DNA of 64,000 nucleotides from a virus, in the IMG/VR virus record IMGVR_UViG_3300036852_000741, positions 32,001 to 96,000 of that record; one strand, written 5' to 3'. Each line of letters starts with the position of its first letter. The first letter of the stretch is position 1. This document shows, in pieces, positions 6,511 to 49,200 of the stretch. The notes below the pieces were generated by a model. That model saw nothing but the letters and a program-made list of their open reading frames with translations. It was not told the origin of the DNA and ran no database searches. The position numbers and the translations under genes are program-made.

Positions 6511-6813
6511 ATGACGACCACGCTGAATGCCACCGAGCGTGGCGTGATGGACGCGCTGATCGCCTGGTGCGAGGCGAACCCTCGCAGCGCCGCGCGGATC
6601 GTCTGGGCGGATGGCCGTAGGCACACCGGCTACCTGACGGTGACCCGCCTCAGCGATGGGCGGGTCTCCGTGAGCGTGCGCAACTCCGATCGTCTGCACG
6701 GCCAGTATCGAACCGTGAGCGATTGGATGCTTGCGGGCGAGCAGTTGCAGATCAAGGTGGGCGCTCGCTATCGCCCTGCCCCGGAGGTCATTCTAGCTCA
6801 CGATGTGTGCTAA
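6511..6813 (+). CDS. Hypothetical protein
   Basis: Preceded by CCCGACCAAGGAGG (6490-6503) without an operator; reads through the next operator (LAHDVC). Confidence 0.7.
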   Translation: MTTTLNATERGVMDALIAWCEANPRSAARIVWADGRRHTGYLTVTRLSDGRVSVSVRNSDRLHGQYRTVSDWMLAGEQLQIKVGARYRPAPEVILAHDVC

Positions 6814-9331: not shown

Positions 9332-11323
9332 GTGGCACAACGCAAGGGGGGCTGGGTGACGCGGCTGCAAGAGGCCGTCGAGGAGAGGACGGGCTACACC
9401 GTCGCGGAGAAGGGGCGGCTCGACCTGCTGGAGGCGGCGGCGACGGAGGGCCGGGCGCTGCGCCGGGAACTGGACCTCATCGGCTGGAGCGTCCTCGACT
9501 ACCTCAGCGGGCAGCCCCAGGAATTGCGCTTCGAGGAGCGCAAGAAGATGGCCCAGCAGGCGCGCATGGTCTGGGCCCAGGACCCGCAGGCCGGCGCGGC
9601 GGTGGACCTCTCCAACGACTTCGTGTTCGGCCGCGGCGTGCCCAGGCCCAAGTGTCGCGACGAGGCGGTGCAGGAGGTCGTGGACGAGGCGTGGGCCGAT
9701 CCCGACAACCAGGCTGTGCTGACCTCTTACGAGGCCCAGATCGCGCTCAACACCGACCTGGAGCTTCAGAGCAACCTCTTTTTGCTGATGTTCGACGGCG
9801 GCGAGGATGGCAAGGTCAAGCTCGGGCTGCTGGATCACGACACGGTGGAGAACGCGGTGCGCGATCCGCAAAACCGCCTGCGGGTCCTCTACTACGTCGC
9901 CAAGACGCGCCACTTCGAGTGGGACTTCACCCACGATCGCCCCGCTCTGCCGGGTGCCGGCGGCAAGCCGCTGGTGTCCAAGACGATGTACTACGACCAC
10001 TGGCGCAACGTGGCCGACGCCGAGGAGGAGGAACGAGAGGAGCCGCTTCCCAAGCCGCCCAAGGAGAAGCACGCTGACGGCAAGGTGCGCCACGTGGCCG
10101 TCAACCGCACCGCGGAGATGGCCTTCGGGGTGCCGCGGATGCGGCGCACGATCCGCTGGTTCACGGCATACAACGACCTGCTCAAGGCGCGCGTGGACAT
10201 GGCGCAGGCCGCCGCCGCGTTCATCATGAAGCGCAAGGTCCAGGGGACGCCGACGCAGCTTGCCAAGCTGGCCGCCAAGGCGGTGTCGCGGAGGAGTGAC
10301 CTGGCGGAGAGCGGCACGCTGACGGGCCCCCGGCCGGCGTCGGTGCTCAGCGAGTCAGAGACCGTCGAGCACGAGCCGCTGAGCCTGGACTCGGGCGCCG
10401 CCAACGCCGCCCAGGACGCGCAGATGATCCGCGCGCAGGTGAGTGCCGCCACCCACTTCCCGCAGCATTACTTCGGCGGTGAGCCCGGCAGTTTGGCCGG
10501 GGCCACCGCCGCCGAGCTTCCGGTCATCAAGCACATCGAGGGGCGCCAGGAGGTGTGGGAGGGCGTCTTCCGCTGGTTCATCGACCGGGTGATCGAGAAG
10601 GCGGTGGACGACGGGCGCCTGGATCGCTACATCGAGGGCGAGGCGGCCGGGGGGCAGGGAGCCGAGGCGATCGGCAGCCCGAACGGCGGAGCGCCGGAGT
10701 GGGCGCCGGACCTGGGCGCACCGGCAGGCTCGCCGTATCTGGGCGAGGCCCACGAGGACCAGGCCGACGACGAGCGCTCGACCGAGCGCGACCTGTCCTA
10801 CGAGTTCTCGATGCCCAACGCGCTCAAGCGGATGATGGCCGACCTGGTGGGCGCGGTGACCAACATCGCGCGCACCTTCGACCCCAACAACACCAACGTC
10901 GAACTGAGCCGCATCCTGCTGGCGATCGTGCTGGGGGAGGGCCTGGAGGTCGAGGACCCGCAGGGCCTGGTGGAGCGCATCTTCCCCGAGGACTACGTGG
11001 ACCCGGCGGTCGCAGCGGCGCAGGCGGCAGCCCAAGGCGGCGGCCCTCCGGGCGAAGGAGAGCCGCCGACGGCCACGGGCGCCGACGGCGAGCAGCACGG
11101 GGCAGGCAACCCATACGGGGCACCCATGAACTCGCCGTACCCCGAGGAGATGGCGCAGGGGCTCAGCGAGGCGCGCTTCGGCGACCTCTCCGACGTGCTC
11201 CAGGTACGTCAGCGCGGCCGGGTCACCGAGGTCGAAAGGATGTTCAACGAGGAGGTGCGATCCGTCGTAGACGAGGCATTGGCGGGCCTGCTCGCCGGTG
11301 CGTCAACCAACGGCAAGCACTAG
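9332..11323 (+). CDS. Phage portal protein
   Basis: 663 aa; DPQAGAAVDLSNDFVFGRG, HVAVNR...FGVP, PQHYFGG...ATAAELP portal-like motifs; lies upstream of MuF. Confidence 0.85.
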   Translation: MAQRKGGWVTRLQEAVEERTGYTVAEKGRLDLLEAAATEGRALRRELDLIGWSVLDYLSGQPQELRFEERKKMAQQARMVWAQDPQAGAAVDLSNDFVFGRGVPRPKCRDEAVQEVVDEAWADPDNQAVLTSYEAQIALNTDLELQSNLFLLMFDGGEDGKVKLGLLDHDTVENAVRDPQNRLRVLYYVAKTRHFEWDFTHDRPALPGAGGKPLVSKTMYYDHWRNVADAEEEEREEPLPKPPKEKHADGKVRHVAVNRTAEMAFGVPRMRRTIRWFTAYNDLLKARVDMAQAAAAFIMKRKVQGTPTQLAKLAAKAVSRRSDLAESGTLTGPRPASVLSESETVEHEPLSLDSGAANAAQDAQMIRAQVSAATHFPQHYFGGEPGSLAGATAAELPVIKHIEGRQEVWEGVFRWFIDRVIEKAVDDGRLDRYIEGEAAGGQGAEAIGSPNGGAPEWAPDLGAPAGSPYLGEAHEDQADDERSTERDLSYEFSMPNALKRMMADLVGAVTNIARTFDPNNTNVELSRILLAIVLGEGLEVEDPQGLVERIFPEDYVDPAVAAAQAAAQGGGPPGEGEPPTATGADGEQHGAGNPYGAPMNSPYPEEMAQGLSEARFGDLSDVLQVRQRGRVTEVERMFNEEVRSVVDEALAGLLAGASTNGKH

Positions 11324-11521: not shown

Positions 11522-11911
11522 AGGGGAACGGGGTGTTTGAGCATGGTCTTTTTCAGCACGGAGACGCCGGGGATCGTGGGCTTCGCGGTGCACGTAGGGC
11601 CACTGGCGGTGTGCCTTGCCCTGGGCCATATCCCCACCATGGAAGCGGTTGGCGCGGCCGTAGACTCCGGGGCAGATGGCGTTCCCTCGCGAACTCGGGG
11701 TAGCTCTAGCCGCGTTGCCTAGACCACCAGGGGTGGGGACCGACGCGGTGGCGTCCTGGTATTCGGTCCCCACCCGGCCCTTTCTCGCATGTTTGGTGCG
11801 CGGGCATGACTGGACTCAGCAGGCGCAGATAGACGCACCGTCGGGCCGGCGTTTCACGGTGTACCTGTGCGCCCAGTGCGGGGTGCGCATCCAGTACGAC
11901 GAGTCGTTCTG

Positions 11912-14900
11912 ATGGCGGCGCGGCGCCCGCAGCCCGCACCACCGCCGAGCTTTGACCAGGCAGCCCAGGGGCAGGACGCCGGCTCGCTCAGTGCGCCGGT
12001 AGCCGGCCTCGCCGTCGGGGGTGTGGGCGCTGGTGCCGGAGTGGGCGCCGGCTACGTGGCGGGGGCCGTCACCGCCGCCGCGGGCGCTGCCGCGATCGCC
12101 AAGGCCACCAAGGCGATCCTCGCCGCGCTCGTGCGGTTCTTCAGGCGCAAGAACGCCGACGACCTGGTGTGGCTCGTGGGCGCCCTGCGCCAGGCCCGAG
12201 CGGCGGAGGGCGTCACCGACGACGAGCTACGCGCGATCGCCCGCGACGAAATCAAGCTGGAGCAGCAGTTTCAGAAGAAGGCGATGGCCCGCTGGGCCGC
12301 GGCGCTGCCCAGGCTCCTGGCGATCGCCGACCCGCAGGAGCGTAACTCCGCGATCGCCAAGTTCCAGGCCCTCGAACGCCACTATCTCAACCTGCGCCAG
12401 CAGGCGATGGTCACCCGCGCCGACTCCCGCATCGAGCAGCGCCTGCTCAAGGAGCTATCCCCCCGCGGCGCCTACTGGAAGCTGTCGCCCTTCGTGATGA
12501 AGTCCACCCCCGACTGCATCGCCCTCGCCGGCAAGGTGTGGCCGTGGAGCGTGATAGATGCCGTGGGCCCACCGCCCCGGCATTTTGGTTGCGCGTGCAC
12601 CCTCTACGGAGTGGACGAGGCCAAGGCCGCCGGCTGGATCACCGACGCCCAGGTCCCCACCGACGAGCACGCCGCGCTGCGCCAGGCCCGCGACCTCCTG
12701 CGCCGAGCCGAGAAGCTGGAGGAGGCCGTCGGCGAGCACTTCGACCACTGGGCGGCTTATCACGACGGTAAGACCGAGGACCCCCCCACCCGGGTTGCTG
12801 CCCTCGCGCTCGACCACTTTTTGGAGGAGGGCCACAAACCAAAAGCTACGCAGGCGGAGGAAGCGGCCTACGAGGAGCACCTCCACCCCCGAAACCGACT
12901 CGGGCGCTGGGCCGAGGTCCTCAAGTACAACCCCCACCTCCCCGGCGAGGCGCGCAACAGCCGCTACCGCGACGCCGAAGGCAAGCTCACCGGGCACATC
13001 GAGTACGGGCCGAAGTTCCTGGACCTCCCCGCCCGCCAGCAGGAGCACGTGCTCGCCCACGAGATAGGCCACGACCTGGACGACGACCTGCTGCGCGACC
13101 CGCACTCCTGGGTGTGGGACGAGTGGAACTGGGCCGACCGCGCCTTCGAGCACCTCATGGGCGGGCCGAACACCACCCCGGGCGAGCGCATCGCAGACGC
13201 CTACGCCGCCGCGTTCGTGGGCAGCGTCGAGGACGCCGTGCGCTGGCCGGCGGTGCTGCGCATCGCCCAAGAGGCCAAGGCGCGCGGGCTCCCGATCCAC
13301 GAGCGCATCGAGGCACTGCTGCCCGAGGAGCCCAACGACGAGCCCGGCGAGGTGCTGGCCGACCTGGACTGGCGCGCCGGCTACGAGGGGCGCAGGCGCT
13401 GGGAGGCGCTACCCGACGACGCCTGGGTGTGGCTGTTTCACGCCACCCGCCGTGAGGACGCCGAGGCGTTCGCGCAGCGCGGCATCGACCCGCTGGCCAA
13501 GCCGCGTTCGCTGGCGCGCGAGCGCTACGAGGCCGGCGAGCACGCCACCTTCCAGCCGGGTGCCGGCGTCGGCGGCGGCCTGTACGTCTCCCCCACCGCG
13601 CATGGCGCCAGCGGCTACGGCCGCGAGCTACTGGCGGTCAAGGTCCGCAAGCGCGACGTGATCGTGCCGCCCGAGCAGCACGGGGCGACGGTGGCGATGG
13701 CGCTGGGCGTCAGCGACGCGATGGTGGCCAGGGCGATCCCACCCGAGCACGTGCGACGCATCGAGACCGGTGGACGGGAGCTAGCGCCGGAGGCGGCAGC
13801 GGCGCTCCTGCGCGAGCCGAAGGCCGAGCCCGCCCGGCGACTGTACGGGGCGACCCCCGAGCGCCTGGCCGACTTCGCCGCGGCGCTGCACAGGCTGGAC
13901 CGGATCACCCGGGCGGACGTGGAGGCGGGGCGAGTGCCGGGCGTGGCGATGGGCGGGCTGGCCGCGGGCGTCGCGGGACGTGCGGACCTGGCGGAGGGGA
14001 CGATCACGCTCACCCCGAGCAGCTTCAACGCGGACGGCACGATCGACTCCGTGCACTTCGCCCACGAGGTCGGGCACTTCCTCGTGCACGCGGTCCTGCG
14101 TGACGGCAAGGTGCCACCCGAGCTTGAGGCGATGGCGGCGGGGCATGGTCGGGCCGAGGGGCGCTACGGCAAGATCGCCGGGGAGGGCGCCAGGCTGTTT
14201 GGGCCGGACGCCAAGCTGCCGGAGGAGTTCATCGCGGACTCCTACGCCGACCTGATCCACGGCCGAGCGGAGTTCTCCTACGTGCCGGGCCTGGACGGAC
14301 CCGATGATCCCGAGTCCCGCGAGGCGGCGCTGCGCGAGTTCGACGCCAGGCCGCAGACGCGGTGGCTGCGCTGGCTGGCGGGCGTGGCCGGGGAGCACGG
14401 CCTGCCCGACCGGGGCCTGTGGCGGTTCGTGCGCGACGAGGACGGCATCTACCGACTCGTGGCGCGTGAACTCCAGGAGGCCGAGTACGACGACACGCTG
14501 CACCCAAGGGGCCGCCTTGAGACGGTCGGGCATGAACTGCCACGGCTGGAGTGGGTGGACCCGCCGCCGCTCAAGCCCAGAACCGGCGAGCGCAAGGCGG
14601 GCGGTTTCACCGCGACCGGCCAGACGACTACCAAGCTCGGCGACCTGATCGAGGGCCTGCTTGTGGGCCAGCTTGGACTGCGGTCGCTGCTGCCGGAGGG
14701 CGGGCGCCAAAGCCCGCTGGACGCGGGGATTGGCGAGTGGGGCTTCGAGGTCAAGGTGGTCACGACGGCGGCGTCCGAACTGAAGATCAAGCCCAAGAAG
14801 CACGAGGTGGCGAGCAAGGTCGCCTACGCGCAGGAGAACGGGCTGACGGCGGCGTCGATGATCGTGGTGGTGGACGTGGACGCCAAGAGGGCGTGGGCCT

Positions 14901-14989
14901 ATTGGCGTGAGGGGATCGGCGCCTACCGACTCACGAGGGAGCCCCCGTGGCATTTCATGGGGTCGCTGGAGCTACCGGCGGCGGCGTGA
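11912..14989 (+). CDS. MuF-like minor head protein fused to zincin peptidase, ART-like, second zincin and PD-(D/E)xK nuclease domains
   Basis: MuF motif PDCIALAGKVW...PPRHFGCAC; HEIGH and HEVGH; LFHAT...GLYVS...GYG...IPPEHV; PLDAG...GFEVK. Confidence 0.8.
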   Translation: MAARRPQPAPPPSFDQAAQGQDAGSLSAPVAGLAVGGVGAGAGVGAGYVAGAVTAAAGAAAIAKATKAILAALVRFFRRKNADDLVWLVGALRQARAAEGVTDDELRAIARDEIKLEQQFQKKAMARWAAALPRLLAIADPQERNSAIAKFQALERHYLNLRQQAMVTRADSRIEQRLLKELSPRGAYWKLSPFVMKSTPDCIALAGKVWPWSVIDAVGPPPRHFGCACTLYGVDEAKAAGWITDAQVPTDEHAALRQARDLLRRAEKLEEAVGEHFDHWAAYHDGKTEDPPTRVAALALDHFLEEGHKPKATQAEEAAYEEHLHPRNRLGRWAEVLKYNPHLPGEARNSRYRDAEGKLTGHIEYGPKFLDLPARQQEHVLAHEIGHDLDDDLLRDPHSWVWDEWNWADRAFEHLMGGPNTTPGERIADAYAAAFVGSVEDAVRWPAVLRIAQEAKARGLPIHERIEALLPEEPNDEPGEVLADLDWRAGYEGRRRWEALPDDAWVWLFHATRREDAEAFAQRGIDPLAKPRSLARERYEAGEHATFQPGAGVGGGLYVSPTAHGASGYGRELLAVKVRKRDVIVPPEQHGATVAMALGVSDAMVARAIPPEHVRRIETGGRELAPEAAAALLREPKAEPARRLYGATPERLADFAAALHRLDRITRADVEAGRVPGVAMGGLAAGVAGRADLAEGTITLTPSSFNADGTIDSVHFAHEVGHFLVHAVLRDGKVPPELEAMAAGHGRAEGRYGKIAGEGARLFGPDAKLPEEFIADSYADLIHGRAEFSYVPGLDGPDDPESREAALREFDARPQTRWLRWLAGVAGEHGLPDRGLWRFVRDEDGIYRLVARELQEAEYDDTLHPRGRLETVGHELPRLEWVDPPPLKPRTGERKAGGFTATGQTTTKLGDLIEGLLVGQLGLRSLLPEGGRQSPLDAGIGEWGFEVKVVTTAASELKIKPKKHEVASKVAYAQENGLTAASMIVVVDVDAKRAWAYWREGIGAYRLTREPPWHFMGSLELPAAA

Positions 14990-15372: not shown

Positions 15373-15525
15373 ATGACCAACACCAATCTGCGAGTAATCG
15401 TGGCGGGCCTGGTCGTGACGGCCGCGACCGTCGGGCTCTACGCGATCGAGGCGCCGTTGTGGCTTCTGGCGCTGGTGAGCGTGGTGGGCTCCCTGTCGAT
15501 GATCGCCTGGGCGTTTGACGAGTGA
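15373..15525 (+). CDS. 50-aa two-TM membrane peptide
   Basis: Hand translation MTNTNLRVIVAGLVVTAATVGLYAIEAPLWLLALVSVVGSLSMIAWAFDE. Confidence 0.65.
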   Translation: MTNTNLRVIVAGLVVTAATVGLYAIEAPLWLLALVSVVGSLSMIAWAFDE

Positions 15526-15809
15526 GCGCTGGGGCGTCCGGGCCGGCTGAGAGACTGGCGGGCCCGACCTTCCAGGAGGCCCACATGCGCGAGGCGATCA
15601 TGAGTGAGCTAGCGGCACGCAACGGCGGGCCGGGACTCACGGCCCGTGAGCTTGCCAGCTTCCTGCACGCGCCCGAGGCGATCGTGCGCAACATGCTCGC
15701 GGCGCTCGTGTTCCGCGAGAAGTGCGTGACGTGCGATGCGCGTGGCCGCTTCTCTATCGGTGAGCCCTCGGCGCTGCTGGCCGCCGGGCCGATGCCGCTG
15801 GGGGCGTGA
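15522..15809 (+). CDS. Small winged-HTH protein
   Basis: GLTARELASFLHAPEAIVRNMLAALV...GRFSIG. Confidence 0.7.
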   Translation: MSAGASGPAERLAGPTFQEAHMREAIMSELAARNGGPGLTARELASFLHAPEAIVRNMLAALVFREKCVTCDARGRFSIGEPSALLAAGPMPLGA

Positions 15810-16045
15810 TGGCCGAGGCCGAGGAGAACGGCTGGATTCGGTGTGAGCGCAGCCACGAGGTCAAGGTGGGCGTGCTCTCCGGTCGGCTTGTGGTCCTGTA
15901 CGTCAACGTGGACGGCCGCGCGGCGAGCCTCTCGCTGCTGGACCCGGAGGTCGCGCGCGAGCTTGGTGACGCGCTGGAGGCGGCGGCGGTGAAGGTCGGG
16001 GCGCCGATCCGCGCGGCGCATGAGAACCCGAGGGCGGGGCGGTGA
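15809..16045 (+). CDS. Hypothetical protein
   Basis: LDPEVARELGDALEAAA motif common in actinophage small proteins. Confidence 0.65.
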   Translation: MAEAEENGWIRCERSHEVKVGVLSGRLVVLYVNVDGRAASLSLLDPEVARELGDALEAAAVKVGAPIRAAHENPRAGR

Positions 16046-16287
16046 GCATCGAGCGCATGTTCTACTGCGAGGGGCCGGGCTGTGGCGACCAGCACGACGA
16101 CGGCCTGCCGGTGCACGCCATCACCGCGAGCCCGTACCCCCATCTTCCGATGGGCTTCATCGAGACCCGCCAGCGCCAGGACGGCGAGGACTTCGAGCAC
16201 CACTTCTGCTCGTGGGACTGCTTGATGAAGTACGCCGCCCAGCACCCACCGCCGGAGATGATCGAGGTGGAGGACCCCGGCTCGTGA
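16042..16287 (+). CDS. Zinc-finger protein (CEGPGC...HFCSWDC)
   Basis: TRASH/MYM-like ligand pattern. Confidence 0.75.
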   Translation: MSIERMFYCEGPGCGDQHDDGLPVHAITASPYPHLPMGFIETRQRQDGEDFEHHFCSWDCLMKYAAQHPPPEMIEVEDPGS

Positions 16288-16749
16288 ACGCCGAGGATGA
16301 GCGGCGGCTGGCGCACGCGTTCTGGCGCGGCTACTACTTCGGCGCGGCCGTCGGGGTCGCCGGGTTCGTCGGCGGGATGCTGTTGGCGAGGCTGGCCTGA
16401 TGCGAGGGAAGCAAGCCCCGACGCGCGGGGAGTGGGGGCGGATGCCGGCGGCCTTCGGCGCGATGATTGTCGTGGGCTTGTACCTGCGCTGGGCCGACCC
16501 GCCCGTTGGCCTCGGCTTCGTTGTCCTGCTGGTGTGCAACCTCATCGTGGGGCGGTGGGTCGAGCATGGCTGAGGGGCAGTGATGGATCGGCTTGGGCCG
16601 CGCTGCGGGTGTTGCGGGCAGCCGCTGGACCCGCCGCTGGACTTCCTGGCCCGAGTGGTGATGCGGGGTGCGGCGACGTGGCTGTGGACGCTGCCCTGCC
16701 GAATCTGCGAGGCGTTCGCCCGGCTGCGGGCGCTGCGTGACGGGGGTCC

Positions 16750-17028
16750 GTGGTGACTGGCGCCCCGCGGGAAAAGCGACTGTCCGTGTTCCGGCGGGTC
16801 TACCTGTTCGCCCGCGACTACTTCAGCGAGTTCGGCATCGCCTGGTCGTTGGCGCGGATGCACGACTGCGAGCGCAACGGCGGACACCGCTGGGGCGACG
16901 TGCAGCCCGACGAAACGATGGGCCGCGGGCAGACCTGCTCGCGCTGCGGGACCTTCCGTGGCGTGACGAAGACCAGCGGGACGGCTGTCACGAACACGCC
17001 GCTGTCTGTCCAGATGCGGACGAAGTGA
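16750..17028 (+). CDS. Cassette mini-gene 1 (zinc ribbon GHRW...CSRCG)
   Basis: Ends SVQMRTK through the GCGGACG site. Confidence 0.65.
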   Translation: MVTGAPREKRLSVFRRVYLFARDYFSEFGIAWSLARMHDCERNGGHRWGDVQPDETMGRGQTCSRCGTFRGVTKTSGTAVTNTPLSVQMRTK

Positions 17029-17040
17029 CCGAGGACAGAG

Positions 17041-17238
17041 ATGACGGTGTTTGCAGCGTTCAACGATGAGCAACTTGACGAACTGACGGAGGCATTGGAT
17101 GCCGCCTACCGCGAGGGCGGTTTCGACACCGAGGGCGATCTTGCAGGCGCGTTACGCACTGAGCATGAGGCGCGTGCAAGGCCGATGGCCAAGGCTCATG
17201 GGGCGCCGCCCTGCACGCCCAAGGAGTGGGGGCGTTGA
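17041..17238 (+). CDS. Cassette mini-gene 2
   Basis: GAGGA RBS; acidic helical peptide. Confidence 0.65.
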   Translation: MTVFAAFNDEQLDELTEALDAAYREGGFDTEGDLAGALRTEHEARARPMAKAHGAPPCTPKEWGR

Positions 17239-17266
17239 TAGCTGCCACATCGCGGACGGAGAAGCC

Positions 17267-17497
17267 ATGAGGCGCCGCCTCCTGCTGCTGTGGCTGCGCA
17301 CCGGCTACCGGCCGCTCGCGCGGCTACTCCACCGCTTCGACCTGCACCACACCGTTCGCATGGGCCCGCTGGAGGACGGCGTGACCGTCCACCGCTGCGA
17401 GTGGTGCGGCGTCAGCAGGACCGAGGTTCCGATGGAGGTCACGATGCGCCGGATGGCTGCTGCTTCGCGGACGACCGGAGGGACGCCGAATGCCTGA
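17267..17497 (+). CDS. Cassette mini-gene 3 (HH...CEWCG zinc ribbon)
   Basis: GGAG RBS; ends AAASRTTGGTPNA. Confidence 0.7.
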   Translation: MRRRLLLLWLRTGYRPLARLLHRFDLHHTVRMGPLEDGVTVHRCEWCGVSRTEVPMEVTMRRMAAASRTTGGTPNA

Positions 17498-17693
17498 CTG
17501 GCAGCAGAACGAGTACGGCAACTGGGTTCCTGCCGAGCCGCTGGAAGGCACGTTCGGGCTGCGATGGGAGTTCGCGTGGCAGCATCGCCGCTCGCTGGGC
17601 CAAAACATCGTTCGTGCCGTCGTGGGCGGCTGGCGCGACACGCGCACCGTCGATCGGCTGGCTGCTACGTCGCGGACGGAGAGCCAGCGATGA
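17490..17693 (+). CDS. Cassette mini-gene 4
   Basis: GNWVPAEPL; ends AATSRTESQR. Confidence 0.7.
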   Translation: MPDWQQNEYGNWVPAEPLEGTFGLRWEFAWQHRRSLGQNIVRAVVGGWRDTRTVDRLAATSRTESQR

Positions 17694-17923
17694 CCCAGCG
17701 GGATCGGCGGCAATTGTCACAAACGGCGCTCGCGGAGACTCCACTAGATATGAGCCAACCCCGCAAGACCGCAGACGACCTGCTCCGCGAGTGGATGCAG
17801 GAGAACGACGACGCCAAGCGCGCAGTCCTCCGCAGGCAGTACTTCGACGCCAGAGCCATCGAGCTTCGTCGCCCGGCGAAACGACGGGCCGCCCCTAAGC
17901 GGACGACCGGAGAGACGCCATGA
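17690..17923 (+). CDS. Cassette mini-gene 5
   Basis: Ends AAPKRTTGETP. Confidence 0.65.
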   Translation: MTQRDRRQLSQTALAETPLDMSQPRKTADDLLREWMQENDDAKRAVLRRQYFDARAIELRRPAKRRAAPKRTTGETP

Positions 17924-18186
17924 GCGAGTGCGATTGCCCGCACATGCCCGGACGCCCCCCGGCGTACCACGCGATCGACTGCCCGCTCGCGCCTCCTGGG
18001 GACCAGAAGGTCATCTTCGAGGAACACGCCATCGAGGCGATCGGATGGCTCAGCGCCGAACTGGCGGGTCGCGCCGACGCCTGGAACGGCAACGCGCCCG
18101 ACTGGTTCCCTGAGCCGCCCGAGTTCCTCGACCTGTGGCGTCAGGCGTTGGCTTCTACTAAGCGGACGACCGAGGGGACGCCGTGA
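17920..18186 (+). CDS. Cassette mini-gene 6
   Basis: CDC...HAIDCP; ends ASTKRTTEGTP. Confidence 0.7.
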   Translation: MSECDCPHMPGRPPAYHAIDCPLAPPGDQKVIFEEHAIEAIGWLSAELAGRADAWNGNAPDWFPEPPEFLDLWRQALASTKRTTEGTP

Positions 18187-18341
18187 GCTACCCGTTGCTC
18201 TGTCAACGCTGCGGTCGCCCGGCCGGTCTGACAAGCGAGCCCAAGCAGCCCGATCCCGAACGGGTGGTCGTACGGTGCTGGGACTGCCATCGCCGTGGGC
18301 GCATCTCGCTGGCTGTCCCTAAGCGGACGGAGAAATCGTGA
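18183..18341 (+). CDS. Cassette mini-gene 7 (CQRC...CWDC)
   Basis: Hand translation; ends AVPKRTEKS. Confidence 0.65.
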   Translation: MSYPLLCQRCGRPAGLTSEPKQPDPERVVVRCWDCHRRGRISLAVPKRTEKS

Positions 18342-18472
18342 GCGCGGTCTACTGGTTCATCCGGTATCTGCTGGCGCTCTGCTTCCGCCGCCCCGACGCC
18401 GTTGCGATCTATCGGTCGATGGCTGCTACTTCGCGGACGATCCAGCAGCCAGCGGAGGGCGAGGGCCCATGA
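18338..18472 (+). CDS. Cassette mini-gene 8
   Basis: Hand translation MSAVYWFIRYLL...AATSRTIQQPAEGEGP. Confidence 0.55.
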   Translation: MSAVYWFIRYLLALCFRRPDAVAIYRSMAATSRTIQQPAEGEGP

Positions 18473-18780
18473 CGGAGCCGCGCAATGAGCCGCCAGCTTC
18501 CGCTCCGCGGGAAACTCAGAAGCTGGCCGATCCGGACGTGGCCTTCATCCTTGAGCGACTCAGGCAATCGGGCAGGGAGAAGGACGAGCCGGTGCTGGCG
18601 CTTGCGGCGGCGCTCGTCGTGGCCGAGGCCGAGGTCGAGCGGCTGCGCGAGGCGCTGCGCCGGATCGCCGAGGAGCCGTGCCCGCATCCCGGACCAACCG
18701 TCCCGATGTGCCCCTACTGCGCTGAGGATGCGCGCGAGGCACTGGCGCTCGGTATGCGGACGACCGGAGGGCCGACGTGA
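18469..18780 (+). CDS. Cassette mini-gene 9 (Ead/Ea22-like coiled coil)
   Basis: AEAEVERLREALRRIA; ends ALGMRTTGGPT. Confidence 0.7.
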   Translation: MTEPRNEPPASAPRETQKLADPDVAFILERLRQSGREKDEPVLALAAALVVAEAEVERLREALRRIAEEPCPHPGPTVPMCPYCAEDAREALALGMRTTGGPT

Positions 18781-20732
18781 CGTTCGTGTTGTGGATCAGC
18801 GAGGACGATGGCATCGACCTTGGGCCAACGCCGGAACTGCTCGCCGCCTTCCGTGAGATGGCGCAGGCGGCCGACGGCGACGAGTACGGGCAACTCTGGT
18901 ACGTCCCGCAGACCGCCGACGAGACGATGCCGGCTGACTACATCGCGGCGGCGTCCGCCCAGGCGGCGGACCTGCTGGTGGCGGCCGGCGACAGGCTGGG
19001 CGGGCACGCGCGCTGGGTCCTGGAGCGCCTGGCGGCGGCGGGTGCCCTGGAGGAGGCGTTCAGCCCGGACCAGCCGCGCTACCCGAAGGGCCACCCGAAG
19101 GCCGGGCAGTGGCGTCCGAAGATCGCCGCCGGCCGGGGCCGGATCGCCCCCGGGCATCTGAAGAACGACCTGTTCTACCTGCGCTACTCGATCAAGGCCG
19201 CCCAGGAGGCGCCGCAGGCGCAGGGCGCGGTGGTGGGCACCCGTCGCCTGGCGGAAATCGGCCACGAGGTCGAGAAGATCGCGCTGCGCTACTCGACGCG
19301 CCGCGACTACGAGAAGCGTCTGGCGGACATCCGCGCGGAGCGCAGGCGCATCTCTGATGCGCACTGGGAGCGTTGGGAGGGGTGGGCCCATACCGCCACC
19401 GGGGAGGAGTGGAAGGCCGCCTCGATGGACGAGGAGCGCTTTCTGTCCGCGCGCGACAAGGAGCGCCTGGCGGAGATAGTGACCGAGGAACTGAAGCTCG
19501 CGCGCGACCGCGATCGCGCCGACAAGGACGCGATCCTGGGGGTGCTCGCCGAGATGCGCAAAATGGGCGGCAAGGTGCGCCAGGGGTCAGTGAACATCGA
19601 CCCGGAGGACCCCGACGGCTACTTCTTCATCGCGCTCAAGAGCGGCGAGCAGCGGGAGGTCACCCACGAGACGACGATTCAGGCGATAGAGGAGTCGCGC
19701 ACCAAGGTGCAGGCCGCCTACCGCAACGTGGCCAAGCTGTTGCCGGCGGACTGGCTGGCGGATACGTCGGCAAAGGGCGAGGTGCACACGCTGTTGTCCA
19801 CCAAGCGGGCGTGGCATCGCCGGGAGACGCCGAGCGTGCTGCGCGACCCGTGGGAGGCGGCCCGCCACAAGTTCACCGAGCTACAGAGCGAGGGCCACAA
19901 GTTCCTGGGCCTGCACAAGCAGTACCCGTTCGCGCTGTTCGCCGACAGGGACACCGGCGAGGTCTTCGCGCTGCGCCAGGACGGCACTGTGGTCACCGAG
20001 GCGTGGGATCGCGTCAGGCTCGTGAGCTTCCCGATGGCCGGCGAGGGCACCCTGGAGGACATCTTGGTGCCGGCGCACAGTCTGCCGGCCGCCCCGCTCA
20101 AGCCGGGCGCGAAGGACTACTACGCCGAGATGCGCGCGGAGGCTCTGCGGCTGATGCGCGAGGAGGGCTACGCCTGGGTGGGGATGCGCGGCAAGTGGGG
20201 AACGCTGCGCTCGCCGCAGGGCGAGGAGGTGAGCCTGGACTGGGCGGGCAAGCCGCTGACCTCGCAGGTGGGCGCGGGCGGCACCAAGGCCGCCCTGCCG
20301 CCGCTGCTGCCCGGTGTGATCCCCGACCCACCGCCACCGAAGGTCGAGGACTCCACCATCCGGGTGGACCCTCGGGACGAGCACAAGGTCCTCCACGAGC
20401 TAGCCCACCGTATGGAGGTCGTGGTGGGCGAGGAGAACCAGGCCGGCTACCGTCCGCTGCACTATGCCGCCCTGCTGTTCTTGCAGCAGCGCACCCAGGG
20501 TGAGAGCCTGGTGAAACTCATCGACCTGTACCCCGGCTACGCCTACGAGGACGACGAGGTGACCCGCCCGGACAAGTTTGTGGACGCCTACGTTGGCAAG
20601 GACTATGGCGGCCGGGCCACCGAGGTCATCACAATGGGCCTCGAAATGCTGTTCTATCCGCGCTACAAGCGTGATCTGGCCGACGACCCGGAGATGAAGC
20701 GATGGGTGCTGGGACTGCTGGCAGCGGCGTGA
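18777..20732 (+). CDS. Putative internal head protein with C-terminal zincin metallopeptidase
   Basis: LEEAFSPDQPRYPKGHPKAGQW tag; VLHELAHRME...YVGKDY...TEVITMGLE. Confidence 0.75.
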   Translation: MTFVLWISEDDGIDLGPTPELLAAFREMAQAADGDEYGQLWYVPQTADETMPADYIAAASAQAADLLVAAGDRLGGHARWVLERLAAAGALEEAFSPDQPRYPKGHPKAGQWRPKIAAGRGRIAPGHLKNDLFYLRYSIKAAQEAPQAQGAVVGTRRLAEIGHEVEKIALRYSTRRDYEKRLADIRAERRRISDAHWERWEGWAHTATGEEWKAASMDEERFLSARDKERLAEIVTEELKLARDRDRADKDAILGVLAEMRKMGGKVRQGSVNIDPEDPDGYFFIALKSGEQREVTHETTIQAIEESRTKVQAAYRNVAKLLPADWLADTSAKGEVHTLLSTKRAWHRRETPSVLRDPWEAARHKFTELQSEGHKFLGLHKQYPFALFADRDTGEVFALRQDGTVVTEAWDRVRLVSFPMAGEGTLEDILVPAHSLPAAPLKPGAKDYYAEMRAEALRLMREEGYAWVGMRGKWGTLRSPQGEEVSLDWAGKPLTSQVGAGGTKAALPPLLPGVIPDPPPPKVEDSTIRVDPRDEHKVLHELAHRMEVVVGEENQAGYRPLHYAALLFLQQRTQGESLVKLIDLYPGYAYEDDEVTRPDKFVDAYVGKDYGGRATEVITMGLEMLFYPRYKRDLADDPEMKRWVLGLLAAA

Positions 20733-28373: not shown

Positions 28374-31304
28374 GTGACCCAGCCTGGCGCAGAGGAGCTT
28401 GTCGTGGGACGGGTCGATCCGTTCGTCGCTTTGCGGGGGCGGATCGAGGAGGCCAGCAACGGGGGCAAGGATGCTGGCGAGCGGGCGCTGGCGCTCAAGC
28501 GGGTGCGCTACGGCCTGCTGGCGGCACTGAGGGACGTGGAGGGCCGCATCGAGGAGGCCGAGGGCGACCGCGAGCGCGAGGTGCGTCGCGAGGTGCTGCG
28601 CCGGGTGCGTGAGAACGCCGACCTGCGCGAGCAACTGGAGCGCCGGGGGCTGGTGGCGCCGGAGCGCTTGGACGCGATGGGGCTGGTCTCCCATGACGCG
28701 CTCGATGAGGCCGGGGTCGAGGGGCGCCTGGAGGAGTTCGCGGCCGGCGCCCTGGCGAAGCTCGACAACATCGGGCAGGGCTCTGGCGTGTTGGGCAAGT
28801 GGCTGGAGAAACTGCACCCGCGCGATCGCGGGGGCCAGTTTGCGAAGAAGCCCGGCTCGGGGGTGATGACGGCTCACGTGGGCCCGGACGCCGGTGGCAG
28901 GGGGACGGTGAAGCGTACGGTCAAGGCACCGGCCGCCAAGCGGCCCGAGCGGGTGTTCAAGACGCAGAAGGTCATGCCCGAGGAGCTTGTGGCTCAGCAG
29001 AAGACGCCCGAGCAGAAGGACGTGCCGGAGGCCGAGCGTGTCGGGTTCGAGGGCCTGGCCCCGGGTGCTCGCCCGGCCGGGATGAGCGAGCGGCAGTGGC
29101 GCCAGGAGCGTGCTCGTACCCCGGAGGGGGCTCGTCGGACCAAGGGGCCGGTGCAGGCGCCCGAGGAGATTGAGAAGGCCAAGGCCAAGGACCGCGAGAA
29201 GCGCCAGCGGGGAATGGCCAAGCGTGTCGAGCGCGAGGTGGCCAAGGGCGTCAAGGGCGGGGCCGCCCAGCACTTCAATCCGGCCGGCAAGGTCAGCCAG
29301 AAGGCGCTGTTGGACTACGTGCGCAACACGCTGACCACGCCGTCAACGGCCGATGCGCACTCCGAGGTGCGCGGCGAGCAGCGCTTCTATCACCCCGACC
29401 GCAAGCAGCTTCACGACACGATTATCGACACGTTGCTGCGGCGCCCCAACGAGGACGGCACCATCTCGGCGTCCAACGAGTACCTGCCCTCCCAGGAGAC
29501 GCCGGAGGTCCTGTTCATGGGCGGCGGCTATGCGGCGGGCAAGTCGAGCGCGGAGAAGTTGCTGCGGGCCCGCAACGAGGTGCCGGCGGACTCGCTGAAG
29601 ATCGACCCCGACCAGATCAAGTCGATGCTGCCCGAGTTCGTGGCGACGGCCGGCCACGACCCGGAGGCCAACCTGCGCGTCTACGAGGAGGCGTGGGACA
29701 TCGCCCAGGAGCTTCAGCGTCAGGCCAAGGAGCGCAAGCTCAACGTGGTGGTGGACGGCATCACCAACACCTCGGCCGACGAGGTGTTCGGTCGGGTGCA
29801 GAGCTTCAAGGACGCCGGCTACGGCAACGCGCGGATCGCCTACGTGGATGTGCCCACCGACGTGGCGCTCACCCGGGCCGCCGACCGGATGGCCAAGGCG
29901 ATCGAGCGTGGCGACGGGCCGAACATGCGCCACATCCCCGAGCCGATCATGCGCGCTGTGCACCGCGACGTGGCGGCGACGATTCCGGCAGTGATGGGCG
30001 ACCCCCGCCGCGAGGGCCTGGGGGTGCATGTGGACGTGTACGACGGCCAGTCGGGGGCGCTGCCGATCGCCTCGATCGCCCCCGACGCCGCCGAGCCGAC
30101 GATCCACAACGACCCGGCGTGGGCGCGGCTGCGCGAGAAGGCCGACGAGAAGATCGCCGGGGTGGACGCGGCCAAGAGCGCCACCGACCCGTGGGCTGCC
30201 GGGCGCCTGGCGGAGAACCACGAGGACTTCTTCAACGTGACGCCGCAGACGACGCGGGTGTCGCTGGACAAGCTGCGCCCGTCCAAGCAGCCCGAGAGCC
30301 AGCCCAAGTCGGTGGACAACGCCGAGCGGTTCATGCGTCAGGCGGCGGCCGGCGAGAAGGGCAAGCGCGACCCGATCAGGGTGCGCGACGATGGCGATGG
30401 GACCTACACCGTGCTCGACGGCAACGCCACCTACGGGGCGGCGGTGCGCAACGACTGGAAGGACCTCCCCGTCGAGGTGGTCAACGCCAAGCCCGGCGGC
30501 GAGACCACGGGCGGAGCGGCGGTGCGGCCCGGCGATGACGAGGCCCGAGCCGTGCACCAGCGGATCGTGGAGTCTGTCGGCGATGTGCCCGCGGAGGCGC
30601 CTCCTCAGCCGGCCAGCACCGAGGAGGAGTTGTATGCGCTGGCGCCTGCCGCCCAGGAGGGCTTCGTTGACATCCTGGACCGCGGTGTGGGCGTCTCAGC
30701 GTCGTTGGGGGCGCGTACTCACCAGATCACGAACGAGGACGACTTCAAGGAGGCGGTGGCCGCGGTCGAGGCCGACCCCGACAGCCCGCACATCCTCCTG
30801 GCGCCGTTGAAGGGCACCGAGCGTGCGCGCGAGAAGGTCGAGGGCAAGTACAAGGGCGACTGGGGCAAGCTCTCCGATGTTGTGCGCGGGACGGTCGTGG
30901 TGCCGGACATCGAGACGCTTGAACAGGCGATGGACGCGGTACGCCGGGAGGCGGAGGCCAACGGCTGGAAGGTCAGCGCCCTGGAGAACCGGATGGTCAA
31001 CATCCAGGGCGAGGGCAAGCGTGCGCCGGGGCCGACCTCCTCGGGCTACACGGACTTCAACATCCGCCTGGAGGCGCCCAACGGCATCCAGGCTGAGCTT
31101 CAGTTCAACACCTCGCACATGGTGATCGCCAAGGAGGGCACGCCAGGCGGCCACAAGCTGTTTGAGGAGGAGCGCACGATTGTGGATCGGGCGAACGCGA
31201 GGGGACTCCCGCTCACCGCCGCGGAGCGCGCCAGGGTGTTCGAGCTTCGCAAGCAGCAGACGGCGATCTACACCCAGGCATGGGAGGCCGGCATCCCATC
31301 GTAG
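28374..31304 (+). CDS. Polyvalent protein: HPR tag, Zeta-toxin-like P-loop kinase, ParB-like and RelA/SpoT-like nucleotidyltransferase domains
   Basis: LFMGGGYAAGKS, IDPDQIK, NVVVDG; DPIRV...VLDGN; LKGTERAREKV, DVVR, GYTDFN, AELQFNT, GHKLFEEER. Confidence 0.85.
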   Translation: MTQPGAEELVVGRVDPFVALRGRIEEASNGGKDAGERALALKRVRYGLLAALRDVEGRIEEAEGDREREVRREVLRRVRENADLREQLERRGLVAPERLDAMGLVSHDALDEAGVEGRLEEFAAGALAKLDNIGQGSGVLGKWLEKLHPRDRGGQFAKKPGSGVMTAHVGPDAGGRGTVKRTVKAPAAKRPERVFKTQKVMPEELVAQQKTPEQKDVPEAERVGFEGLAPGARPAGMSERQWRQERARTPEGARRTKGPVQAPEEIEKAKAKDREKRQRGMAKRVEREVAKGVKGGAAQHFNPAGKVSQKALLDYVRNTLTTPSTADAHSEVRGEQRFYHPDRKQLHDTIIDTLLRRPNEDGTISASNEYLPSQETPEVLFMGGGYAAGKSSAEKLLRARNEVPADSLKIDPDQIKSMLPEFVATAGHDPEANLRVYEEAWDIAQELQRQAKERKLNVVVDGITNTSADEVFGRVQSFKDAGYGNARIAYVDVPTDVALTRAADRMAKAIERGDGPNMRHIPEPIMRAVHRDVAATIPAVMGDPRREGLGVHVDVYDGQSGALPIASIAPDAAEPTIHNDPAWARLREKADEKIAGVDAAKSATDPWAAGRLAENHEDFFNVTPQTTRVSLDKLRPSKQPESQPKSVDNAERFMRQAAAGEKGKRDPIRVRDDGDGTYTVLDGNATYGAAVRNDWKDLPVEVVNAKPGGETTGGAAVRPGDDEARAVHQRIVESVGDVPAEAPPQPASTEEELYALAPAAQEGFVDILDRGVGVSASLGARTHQITNEDDFKEAVAAVEADPDSPHILLAPLKGTERAREKVEGKYKGDWGKLSDVVRGTVVVPDIETLEQAMDAVRREAEANGWKVSALENRMVNIQGEGKRAPGPTSSGYTDFNIRLEAPNGIQAELQFNTSHMVIAKEGTPGGHKLFEEERTIVDRANARGLPLTAAERARVFELRKQQTAIYTQAWEAGIPS

Positions 31305-46262: not shown

Positions 46263-49200
46263 GTGGCCACCTTCGTAGATCGCTCGAACGGCGGCCAGGT
46301 CGGGCGCGATGGGTTCCGGCTGGGCTACGAGCTTCTGGGCATCGACCGGCTGGGCCCGTACGACACGTTCACGGGCAACGTCTCGGGCGGGCTCAAGCAC
46401 CTGCTGGTCGGCAAGTCGGGTGGCGCCTACCCGGGCTACTGGGCCCTGAGCGGCGGGCTGTTCGGGACGTTCGGGTCGCCGCTCGTCGGCGGGGTCGTCG
46501 CTGGCGGCGACAAGCACTCGGCGATCACGAAGCCCGGCGGAGCGAGTGCCAGCGGACAGGCCGGCGGGACGCGCACGGTGCTGCGCTCCGCCTCCGGCGG
46601 CGGGACCGGGCCAGCGTCGGGCGGTGGCACCAAGGCGCCGCTGGCGACTAAGGCCGGAGGTGGCAAGGCCAGTCCGAACCTGCTGCGCAACGGTGATTTC
46701 GAGGTGGACGTGGCGGGGTGGGCGGTCTACCTATCGGGCACGATCACGTTTGTCCGGGCGACGGACTGGGCCGACACGGGCGCTGCCTCCATGCGGGTGA
46801 CCGCCGCGGCGGCTGGCAACTTCATCACGAGCGATCGGGGCACGGCCGGGATGCCGGTGATCGCCGGGACGAGCTACACGCTGGCAGCCACTCGCAACGT
46901 GCTCGACCCGACGACGGTCATCTACGTCCAGTGGTTCAACTCGGCGGGCACGTACCTCACCCAGAACTCGGTGCTCTCCTCGACGCTGACGGGGGCCTTT
47001 CGTCAGCAGGCGCAGGTCACTGCCCCGGCGAATGCGGCGTTTTGTGCGCTCGTTCCCGGCGGTGAGGCCAGCGCGTTCGATTTCTACCTAGACACGATTC
47101 GCTTTGGGCTGGCGGGCGCGGCGCCTGGTGGCGTCAGGACCATCTTGGTCACCAAGGGCGGCGGAGCGACGGCGGCGGGCGCTTCGGGTGCCGTCAAGCA
47201 TCCCGCCATCTCGAAGGCGAGCGGGGCGGCGGGCGGCTGCATCGGTGGAGGCGCACGCTCGACGCTGGGCTCCAAGAGCGGCGGTGGGGTGATCCCGCTG
47301 GGCGGGGCGCTCATCAACCTGCTCACCAACCCGAGCCTGGAGACCAACACCACCGCCTGGGCCATCAACCCGGGTGGGGTGGGCGGTAGCGCCACCCTGA
47401 CCCGGATCACGACCGACTCGGTGGTTGGTGCGGCTGCGGCCCAGCAGGCGGGCACGTCTGGCAGCAGCTACGGCATCTACTTCTACGAGGCCGCCGGCAC
47501 AGAGCCCTTTGTGTCCCCCGGCCAGTCGATTGCGGTGCGGGCCTCCGTGAAGATGGTGGGCGCGGCGTTCACGAACCTGCTTCGTGTCGGGGTGCGCTTC
47601 TACAACACGGCGGGCGCCTACCTCTCGGAGAACACGGTCGGTTCCGTTAGCAACCCGGTGGCCGATACGTGGTACGCGCTGAGCGGCAGCATGGTCGTGC
47701 CGGCGGGGGCGTACCGGGCGTCGATCCAGGTCAACACGAACTCGCTGGGGCTGGGCACCTCGTTCACCCTGGTCTACGACGCGCTGCTGATGGTCATGGG
47801 CGCCACGGTACCCGCCTACTTCGACGGGGACTCGGCGCTGGCGGGCTGGACGGGCACGGCGCACGCGTCCACCTCGAAGCTCACGGTGATTCCGGGAATC
47901 GGCCGGTCGATCCTGGTCACCAAGCCCGGTGGTGCGGCGGCGGGCGGGAGCGGCGGTGGCACTCGAACGGAGCCGGTCTCCAGGGCGGGCGGGGGAAGCG
48001 CCCGGGGGGCGGCCGGTGGCGACAAGGACATTCTGGTTACGAAGGCCGGGGGCGCGACTGCGGTCGGCACTCCTGGTGGAATCAAGCACCCGGCCGTTGC
48101 CAAGAGCGGCGGCGCGCAGGGCGCGGCGAGTGGCGGTGGCGTCAAGCATCCGGCGGTGACCAAGCCGGCGGGCGCCGCGGGCGGTGGGACCGCGGCGGGT
48201 ACGCGCACCGTCCTGGTGACCAAGCCGGGCGGCGCCTCGGGTCGCGGTATCGCCAGCGGCGACAAGGATGTCCTGACCGCCAAGGCGGGCGGTGCGAGCG
48301 CGACGGGCACCCCCGGTGGCGTCAAGCATCCGGTCGTCCTCAAGGCCGAGGGGGCGCCCGCCGCCGGTGTGGGGGGCGGCATCAAGCACGTTCTGTTGCC
48401 CTATGCGTCCGGGGGCGCGATCGCGACCGGCAGCGCTGGCGGCACGAAGAAGCCGCTGGTCACCAAGCCGGCCGGCGCGGCGGGCGCGGCAAGCGGTGGG
48501 GGGGCCAAGACGGCGCTGGCCACCCGGTCGGGCGGCGGGGTCTCGCAAGCCGGGCCGGGCCCAACGGACCTGCTGCGCAACGGGTCGCTTGAGCAGGGCA
48601 ACACCGGCTGGACGATCAACGGGGTCGCCACGGTCACCCGCATCTCGGGCGCTGCCTACGACGGGGCGTGGCTGCTTTCTGTGGCCGCCCCCGGCTATGT
48701 GGATGGCGGGGCGTTCATCCCGTTTCACCAGGTTGCGCCGGGCGATGTGCTGAGCCTGTCGGTGTTTGTGCGCGGCGAGGTGGGCGGCGAACGGGTCCAC
48801 ATCCGTGCGCGCGAGGGGCTGCTCAATGGTGGATTCCTGCGCGAGAACACGGGCTCGCACTTCACGCTGACGACTGGCTGGACGCGGGTGAGCATGGTCA
48901 CCCCGGCGATGGGTGCGAGCACTGCTCTGCTGACCCTCAAGATCGTCAACTCGGACACCTTCGCGGCCACGTTCTATGTCGATGCGGGCCAGGAGACCCA
49001 GGGGGCTGACCTCAAGGCATACGTCAGTGATCCGGGCGCTGGCACTAAGACCGTCCTGGTCGGCAAGTCGGGCGGCGCCGTGGCCAGCGGTGTCGGGGGC
49101 GGCGTCAGGCACGTGCTGTTGCCCTACGAGGCCGGGGGGGCGCAGGGCACCGCGAGCGGTGGCGCCGTCAAGCACCCCGCGGTCTCCAAGGCCAACGGCG

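Follow-up and report, generated by a model that had tools for sequence, protein, structure and literature searches.

Phage genomes have been known since 2011 to contain start-associated repeats. In Cluster K mycobacteriophages, unrelated genes are preceded by one asymmetric start-associated sequence (SAS), sometimes with an imperfect inverted repeat upstream of it (the extended SAS, ESAS), and the extra conserved bases of SAS and ESAS cannot pair with 16S rRNA (PMC3203893). The function of both was still untested in a 2025 survey (PMC12699233). The promoter-early stem-loop (PeSL) cassettes of T4-type phages are another described case of a repeated junction element (PMC2839356, PMC4122927). Here, we analysed a 64,000-nt stretch of viral DNA (the window; positions refer to it unless marked as genome), which corresponds to bases 32001-96000 of the 105-kb IMG/VR record IMGVR_UViG_3300036852_000741, classed as a provirus. 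A 19-mer, GGCTGC-N6-GCGGACG, was found at nine consecutive gene junctions between 17004 and 18762, always on the + strand. An earlier note on this DNA had listed nine such 19-mers, and all of them were recovered where it had placed them. The feature is a sequence variant, not seen before, of the known but unexplained start-associated junction repeats. We propose, at about even confidence, that the 19-mer could be a start-associated module of gene junctions, specific to the lineage and comparable to SAS and ESAS, that gives each promoterless gene the same context for initiation and coupling.

The 7-nt core GCGGACG was invariant at 9/9 sites. Each core was followed by a Shine-Dalgarno (SD) sequence and then by a start codon 8-29 nt downstream of the core. 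Site 1 (17004-17022) had the most divergent left arm and lay within the tail of a 92-amino-acid (aa) gene (16750-17028, + strand), which formed the left edge of the array. There, a stop stood one codon past the core, followed by the SD and an ATG at 17041. At site 2 (17240-17258), the called upstream gene ended at 17238, and the canonical frame was open through the site. Four sites formed a long class in which the core was followed by ACC and the SD, creating CGACC + SD. These were site 3 (17455-17473, start at 17490), site 5 (17887-17905, ATGA at 17920), site 6 (18150-18168, GTGA at 18183) and site 9 (18744-18762), where the GTGA at 18777 was the start of a 651-aa gene. The SD came directly after the core in a short class, site 4 (17660-17678, ATGA at 17690) and site 7 (18311-18329, GTGA at 18338). 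At site 8 (18421-18439), the SD was located 14 nt past the core, with ATGA at 18469. The left-half variants, which ended in ...TAA or ...TC before the core, occurred with both right-half classes. The left arm of site 6 coded for the L-A-S-T end of a widespread small-protein family. The spacing between sites was irregular, from 110 to 323 bp.

Codon usage was used to determine the level at which the sites were conserved. The earlier note had read the site in eight upstream genes as x-x-x-x-R-T with CGG ACG, and this was confirmed. The Arg codon in the motif was CGG at 9/9 sites, though CGG accounted for 24.5% of the Arg codons of the genome, and the Thr codon was ACG at 9/9 sites compared with 45.5% of the Thr codons. 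The joint probability of this CGG + ACG fixation was ~3e-9. The residue before Arg varied (S/K/M), and its third base was G at every site. A third-position T was present at 7/9 sites, and T occupied 7% of third positions genome-wide. The core showed 0 changes in 63 cells, whereas the 12 columns to its left were 30% non-consensus (P ~2e-10). For the seven internal sites alone, the contrast between core and flank gave P = 1.6e-6. These results showed that conservation acted on the nucleotides and not on the peptide. A shared peptide failed as an explanation because the codon choice was fixed while the residue before Arg varied. Neutral decay of duplicated junctions failed as well, because the core was invariant while the flanks varied.

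Eight small genes of 44-103 aa were located on the + strand from 17041 to 18780, each between two sites, so that n+1 sites accompanied n enclosed genes. Their coordinates were 17041-17238, 17267-17497, 17490-17693, 17690-17923, 17920-18186, 18183-18341, 18338-18472 and 18469-18780. The array thus consisted of promoterless single-ORF (open reading frame) units in one orientation. The upstream stops were all TGA; seven junctions had an ATGA or GTGA overlap, one had an 8-nt overlap and one had a 12-nt gap. It had been claimed that every junction supplies a stop and a ribosome-binding site (RBS), and this agreed with the SD present at each one. The G+C content at third codon positions (GC3) of the small ORFs was 0.68-0.90, which supported their coding status. 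The array genes had a GC3 of 0.82 compared with 0.88 in other small genes (P = 0.013), a comparison that was biased because the second set was partly selected on GC3. The gene bodies were mutually unrelated, as the earlier note had said; the best Smith-Waterman z was 3.3 over 105 pairs. Paralogy of the bodies by tandem duplication was rejected on this ground. Pfam and PHROG matches of the array genes were all below threshold and occurred in two genes only. The gene at 18183-18341 matched three Pfam families, the best being Zn_ribbon_10 (E = 0.0023, 18.1 bits against a cut-off of 24.2 bits), and the gene at 18469-18780 matched phrog_1467 (E = 0.0083) and Pfam DeaD_dimer (E = 0.095). The junctions farther upstream (15373-16750) had neither the motif nor a good SD.

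Site 2 departed from the common frame. One added G in the GGGGG run at 17229-17233 would put the 65-aa gene (17041-17238) into the canonical frame, which read ...A-A-T-S-R-T-E-K-P-stop with an ATGA overlap at 17267-17270. The one-base frame change within 17229-17238 shortened this gene and uncoupled it from the next one. It was either a real mutation or a sequencing or assembly error. The 65-aa gene had the lowest GC3 of the array set. Because site 2 departed by a single-base change only, all nine sites were regarded as frame-locked. The earlier note had taken site 2, where the upstream gene had already stopped, as proof of conservation at the DNA level. The nucleotide-level constraint itself stood on codon usage, but site 2 was not an independent proof of it, given the 1-nt frame change. 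Programmed frameshifting was considered for the motif in general, through which the downstream frame was open, and was rejected because there was no slippery heptamer.

The distribution of the motif was monitored over the whole 105-kb record. The bare 7-mer GCGGACG was not enriched in the window (47 copies against 52 expected). However, 9/30 of its + strand copies fell within 1.78 kb, where 0.6 were expected (Poisson P = 1.6e-8). A 25-column position weight matrix (PWM) was built from the nine sites, which had leave-one-out scores of 13.7-29.7. The best matches elsewhere in the record scored 17.1 (minus strand, inside a + strand gene) and 14.5 (in a giant repeat gene), and the + strand outside the array contained nothing comparable to the nine sites. 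The distribution was therefore restricted to the array, and an equal frequency genome-wide, an outcome that the earlier note had raised, was not seen. An inverted copy of the 19-mer was observed on the minus strand at genome 31127-31145, 873 nt before the window and inside a + strand gene. It was exact at all 13 specified bases and 17/19 identical to site 4, and + strand RNA from this position would be complementary to the array junctions. This copy was probably due to chance, because it lay inside a + strand coding region and ~0.05 exact matches were expected. Chi-like, pac/cos, iteron and parS readings of the 19-mer were rejected on the one-block distribution, the irregular spacing and the SD linkage.

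The transcriptional setting of the array was examined next to its RBS context. No sigma-70-like promoter or terminator was detected in 14.5-23 kb of the window, and no Rfam family was found in the array. A 21-nt promoter- or operator-like repeat (GCTCACGATGTGTGCTA + YMMT) with the look of an extended -10 element was present in 10 window copies compared with 0.01 expected, all on the + strand (491, 2201, 4923, 5863, 6796, 22364, 31304, 32484, 39460 and 59450). These repeats appeared to be the promoters of the phage and to mark its transcription units. The array was placed inside a long transcript, because it contained no promoter or terminator and lay between the copies at 6796 and 22364. Another element, the RBS leader CCGACCAAGGAG (CCGACC + SD), occurred in ~25 copies in the record on both strands, 4-10 nt before start codons. 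Examples were found at 538, 3320, 5911, 6492, 6835, 39488 and 59497, and some copies were located ~30-50 nt downstream of the GCTCACGATGTGTGCTA repeat. The CCGACC part of the leader cannot pair with the 16S 3' end. The leader itself counts as a start-associated sequence. The nearest relative, G402, had a counterpart leader CCGACCGAGGAG, whose 15-20 copies, counted without regard to starts, made it the most frequent 10-mer family there. The CGACC + SD at junctions 3, 5, 6 and 9, together with a GACC + SD a few bases past the core at junction 1, showed that the right half of the junctions was akin to this lineage-wide leader. The 19-mer thus stood directly 5' of the start-associated sequence of the lineage, and therefore its position was that of ESAS relative to SAS.

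The junctions were compared with the described start-associated repeats. Like SAS and ESAS, they were asymmetric, had one orientation, preceded the starts of unrelated small non-structural genes, overlapped or abutted the SD and occurred in a high-GC, actinophage-like genome. ESAS is an imperfect inverted repeat just upstream of SAS, and the 19-mer had the same relation to CGACC + SD. However, the consensus of SAS is GGGATAGGAGCCC at 3-7 nt before the start, whereas the sequence here was different and its core ended 8-29 nt before the start. The element was also located inside the coding tail of the upstream gene and was frame-locked, unlike SAS and ESAS. It was present in nine contiguous copies, compared with 11-19 copies dispersed over half a genome, and its inverted arms measured 6 nt compared with 17 nt in ESAS. 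SAS is dispersed in the non-structural half and conserved across related phages, whereas the 19-mer was found in the array only and was absent from G402 and a second related record, G403. The CCGACC + SD leader, dispersed and common to G402, was a better counterpart of SAS than the 19-mer. The resemblance of the 19-mer to SAS and ESAS would accordingly be one of function only and not of membership. The PeSL cassettes gave a second comparison (PMC2839356, PMC4122927). In both cases, repeated short cassettes lie beside small ORFan genes in a hyperplastic region, regulatory ones in the T4-type phages, and identical repeats could serve as substrates of homologous recombination for adding, removing or swapping single genes. 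In T4-type phages, indels and gene replacements that distinguish close relatives have their breakpoints at the PeSL repeats, and mini-circles arise. In contrast to the junctions here, a PeSL is intergenic and consists of a sigma-70 promoter and a terminator hairpin; the array had neither, and its repeat overlapped coding sequence.

Searches for relatives were carried out at the DNA and protein levels. A DNA-level search of the phage reference collection gave no match to the record, and tblastn of two array proteins gave none. The portal protein gave matches at 22-26% identity only, and the homologues of the 651-aa protein reached 34-42% identity at most among 5.8 billion proteins. When the 651-aa protein was used as a single query, neither viral nor genome contigs gave a match; an alignment-based search with it recovered two distant viral loci but nothing from genome contigs. 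There were 0 matches in 401 Actinomycetota genomes, which carried little weight because the host phylum was not known. G402 (110 kb), one of the two viral contigs recovered in this way by alignment, shared 36 proteins with the record at 28-76% identity, and no relative closer than 42-53% protein identity was present in the collections searched. The synteny with G402 ran through the portal and the large protein to the 651-aa homologue and its 99-aa neighbour. The ~16 small genes at 15.0-18.8 kb of the window (+ strand) had 0 counterparts in G402, where a 1056-aa gene filled the syntenic slot, with a promoter-like element directly behind it. These results supported the suggestion that the array occupies a variable slot. 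G402 had 11 copies of a 16-nt version of the GCTCACGATGTGTGCTA repeat, one of them directly before the 651-aa homologue. The 19-mer array was absent from G402 and from four other related records. Strict scans for the motif in wider collections gave isolated single sites only. The counts were 4 in viral contigs (with a looser pattern), 7 in the genomes of species representatives and 3 in contigs from metagenomes; each was a single site, and no second array with the motif was found in the viral, genome or metagenome collections. In the scan of genome contigs, the motif count agreed with our own estimate of the chance rate.

One array gene had homologues that could be followed elsewhere. The 88-aa product of 17920-18186 belonged to a widespread family of small proteins whose core is highly conserved and whose members occur in phage contigs from soil and metagenomes. 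It had 21 database homologues with 56-84% identity over half its length, and a protein atlas search with it gave no usable result. The homologues ended soon after a conserved A-L-x-A-T and had variable tails. The DNA of four homologues was recovered from viral contigs, and none showed a trace of the motif. Gene calls were inspected in two of these contigs, L028 and L030. In L028, the homologue lay in a run of ATGA/GTGA-coupled small genes with heterogeneous junctions, and in L030 its neighbours were not coupled by ATGA/GTGA. The absence of the motif beside the homologues and the heterogeneous junctions of L028 meant that the uniform junction was a property of the locus, not of the gene or of coupled arrays generally. 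In addition, uniformity was not a by-product of ATGA coupling, because small-gene arrays of other high-GC phages with a homologue of this gene, as in L028, had heterogeneous junctions. The public gene call starts the 88-aa protein at Met9 and passes over the ATG that follows an SD and overlaps with the stop of the upstream gene.

The record as a whole had ~70% G+C and an estimated completeness of 85%. The left arm (L015, genome 1-19200, minus strand) encoded RecT, a PD-(D/E)XK nuclease, a ParB-like protein, a DnaB-like protein and RusA. The ParB-like protein (parB, genome 3447-4595) had N-terminal and helix-turn-helix (HTH) domains; HTH and ParB-HTH proteins were encoded in the record. The long + strand arm encoded SSB and a gpA-type large terminase. 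The portal gene was located at 9332-11323 (+ strand), followed by the gene of a 1040-aa protein at 11867-14989 (+ strand) that had no Pfam or PHROG match. This protein shared only short motifs with the large protein of the syntenic G402 locus (L009, 6788-9958). The common motif was L-x-E-A...L-H-P-R-x-R-x-G-x-W, present twice in each. The 651-aa gene (18777-20732, + strand) formed the right edge of the array; its product had an invariant HExxH...E motif and was conserved in the relatives L009 and L010. The C-terminal region of this protein matched PHROG families, including a weak match to a 'minor head protein' family. Farther downstream, the 976-aa protein at 28374-31304 had a Zeta-toxin/AAA_33 kinase domain (Pfam E = 9e-23). 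A 3305-aa ORF (46263-56180) was built from a degenerate 60-nt (20-aa) unit that was rich in Gly, Thr and Lys and recurred dozens of times; the repeats carried on into the next gene (56346-57983). The repeat protein was probably a fibre or surface protein. No integrase was detected anywhere in the 105-kb record. The 'provirus' may be a plasmid-like prophage maintained outside the chromosome, or else the contig may come from a free phage and be misclassified.

The proposed junction module would extend over ~35-45 nt and be reused at the nine consecutive boundaries of promoterless, translationally coupled small accessory genes. It would comprise the last codons of the upstream gene (L/M-A-A-x-x-R-T), the core GCGGACG, the SD and, overlapping with the TGA stop, a start codon. 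It would act at the nucleic-acid level, most likely on mRNA, in the initiation or re-initiation region of the downstream gene. Ribosomes, or a protein or RNA acting in trans, might read the core and thereby set the expression of the block. Several results weighed against this proposal. No trans-acting factor for the core was identified. Complementarity to the 16S rRNA of Streptomyces, which need not be the host, was no better than that of shuffled motifs. RNA folding of the nine junctions gave no common structure, and none was stabler than shuffled sequences (z +0.2 to -1.4). The core and the SD were 0, 3, 8 or 14 nt apart, a loose spacing for a composite initiation signal. The 19-mer was confined to one 1.8-kb block and was not genome-wide like SAS or stoperators. 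Finally, G402 had no 19-mer yet kept the promoter-like and leader motifs.

A by-product of the proposed module might be that identical in-frame junctions allow a RecT/exonuclease system to delete, duplicate or swap genes while the neighbours stay intact. Because all junctions were in frame, an exchange between any two of them would spare the neighbouring genes; the earlier note had argued that frame, stop and coupling would survive such an exchange, and the geometry bore this out. The module may also double as an in-frame seam for homologous recombination, in the manner of PeSLs, since RecT and an exonuclease are encoded by the phage; the variable slot and the pairing of left-half variants with both right-half classes likewise favour a seam. 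A seam is compatible with an adaptor and not exclusive of it. It is a different matter if the sites were nothing but the footprint of assembly, which we consider rather unlikely. They would then descend from a single progenitor junction, copied by gene conversion or homologous recombination through RecT-type annealing at 20-35 nt of identity while the hyperplastic slot gained genes, and would be kept similar by conversion. They would have no regulatory role aside from the ordinary RBS, as in the PeSL or 'linker' model without promoter and terminator. Several observations were consistent with this. The gene bodies were unrelated and enclosed by n+1 sites, members of the 88-aa family elsewhere had no such tail, the whole block was missing from the G402 slot, the phage encoded RecT and a PD-(D/E)XK nuclease, the GC3 of the array genes was slightly lower (in the biased comparison above), and the left-half variants paired with both right-half classes, as expected from exchanges in the core. 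PeSL provided a precedent (PMC2839356). However, a neutral footprint would not hold 7 columns invariant beside columns varying at 30%, and conversion would homogenise the flanks too. The tracts of identity were short and imperfect, and no recombinant or alternative array was present in the collections scanned. A shared C-terminal peptide tag (L/M-A-A-x-x-R-T...), used for example in capsid loading or turnover, would make the DNA identity a consequence of the protein. All nine upstream genes ended in one tail pattern in one frame (one of them after the 1-nt correction), and the block was flanked by the portal and large-protein genes and, at its other end, by a gene whose product weakly matched a minor-head-protein-like family. 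Nevertheless, the fixed synonymous codons (~3e-9 for CGG + ACG alone) and the constant third base of the varying residue before Arg spoke against it. The residues past R-T differed (T-G-G-T-P, E-S-Q-R, E-K-S, K), and the tail past the core ranged from 1 to 10 residues, which left this tag a poor prospect.

Protein binding to DNA and site-specific recombination were weighed on the same data. Stoperators are present in about 20-30 copies over the whole genome. Those bound by the L5 gp71 immunity repressor in Cluster A are asymmetric short sites at gene boundaries, oriented with transcription (cited in PMC3203893). The 19-mers resembled them, but they lay in one block and were tied to the SD, whereas stoperators are genome-wide. 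A stoperator-type repressor or the ParB/KorB-like protein encoded in the left arm of the record could bind the 19-mer and silence or roadblock transcription, an improbable explanation. It would fit the asymmetric, singly oriented sites at gene boundaries, as in L5 stoperators and as proposed for ESAS (PMC3203893), the weak dyad symmetry (4/6) and the HTH and ParB-HTH proteins of the record. Against this, the sites occurred in one 1.8-kb block only and none was near promoters or parB (PWM scores within the parB gene were <=9.2). The spacing was irregular, the left arm was far less conserved than the right, and the frame-lock and SD linkage would be superfluous for an operator. In integrons, each cassette carries its own attC site. 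An attC site is an imperfect palindrome of 55-140 nt; it forms a hairpin and contains R/L boxes and a GTTRRRY core. The earlier note had proposed an integron-like system with a non-attC site of the 6-6-6/7 type, at which a tyrosine recombinase would insert and excise cassettes or change their order. As in an integron, the array did consist of promoterless single genes that all pointed the same way and were flanked by direct repeats; its invariant 7-nt stretch could be a crossover region, and the frame-locked design tolerates exchange. However, there was no integrase, attC-type bipartite palindrome, folded bottom strand or GTTRRRY core, and the site overlapped two coding sequences. The note had found no recombinase in the window, which held and extended to the whole record: neither tyrosine (PF00589) nor serine (PF00239) recombinases were detected in its 105 kb, at 85% completeness. 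The arms had been described as imperfect inverses. A weak dyad was indeed present, but it comprised 4/6 matches only, with a chance probability of ~0.06 at this base composition by our own calculation. The two arms were unequally conserved, the left much less than the right. No symmetry around the invariant 7-mer was seen on inspection, and no hairpin was consistent across the sites. The site was not carried by the array gene with homologues elsewhere (17920-18186; four contigs, 21 proteins), and no other array with the site was present in the collections scanned. The integron-like reading was thus not upheld and appeared to be the least probable of all. Scarcely more probable was a dedicated, frame-preserving cassette exchange with GCGGACG as its crossover point, carried out by an unrecognised recombinase or by RecT/exonuclease with an unusual site preference.

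If true, a dedicated exchange would be a phage counterpart of the integron in a head-gene operon, whose sites would serve at once as coding tail and as start of translation. If the 19-mer acts as an adaptor alone, it would be ordinary, though tidy, phage gene-expression architecture. A seam role, if shown, would support the old 'linker' model of modular evolution in high-GC phages. The nine sites and eight tiny genes within 1.8 kb form a convenient test bed for coupling, factor binding or shuffling seams. The case adds a compact start-associated repeat that is frame-locked, whose constraint can be demonstrated from codon usage, and that is attached to a leader conserved between two distant relatives.

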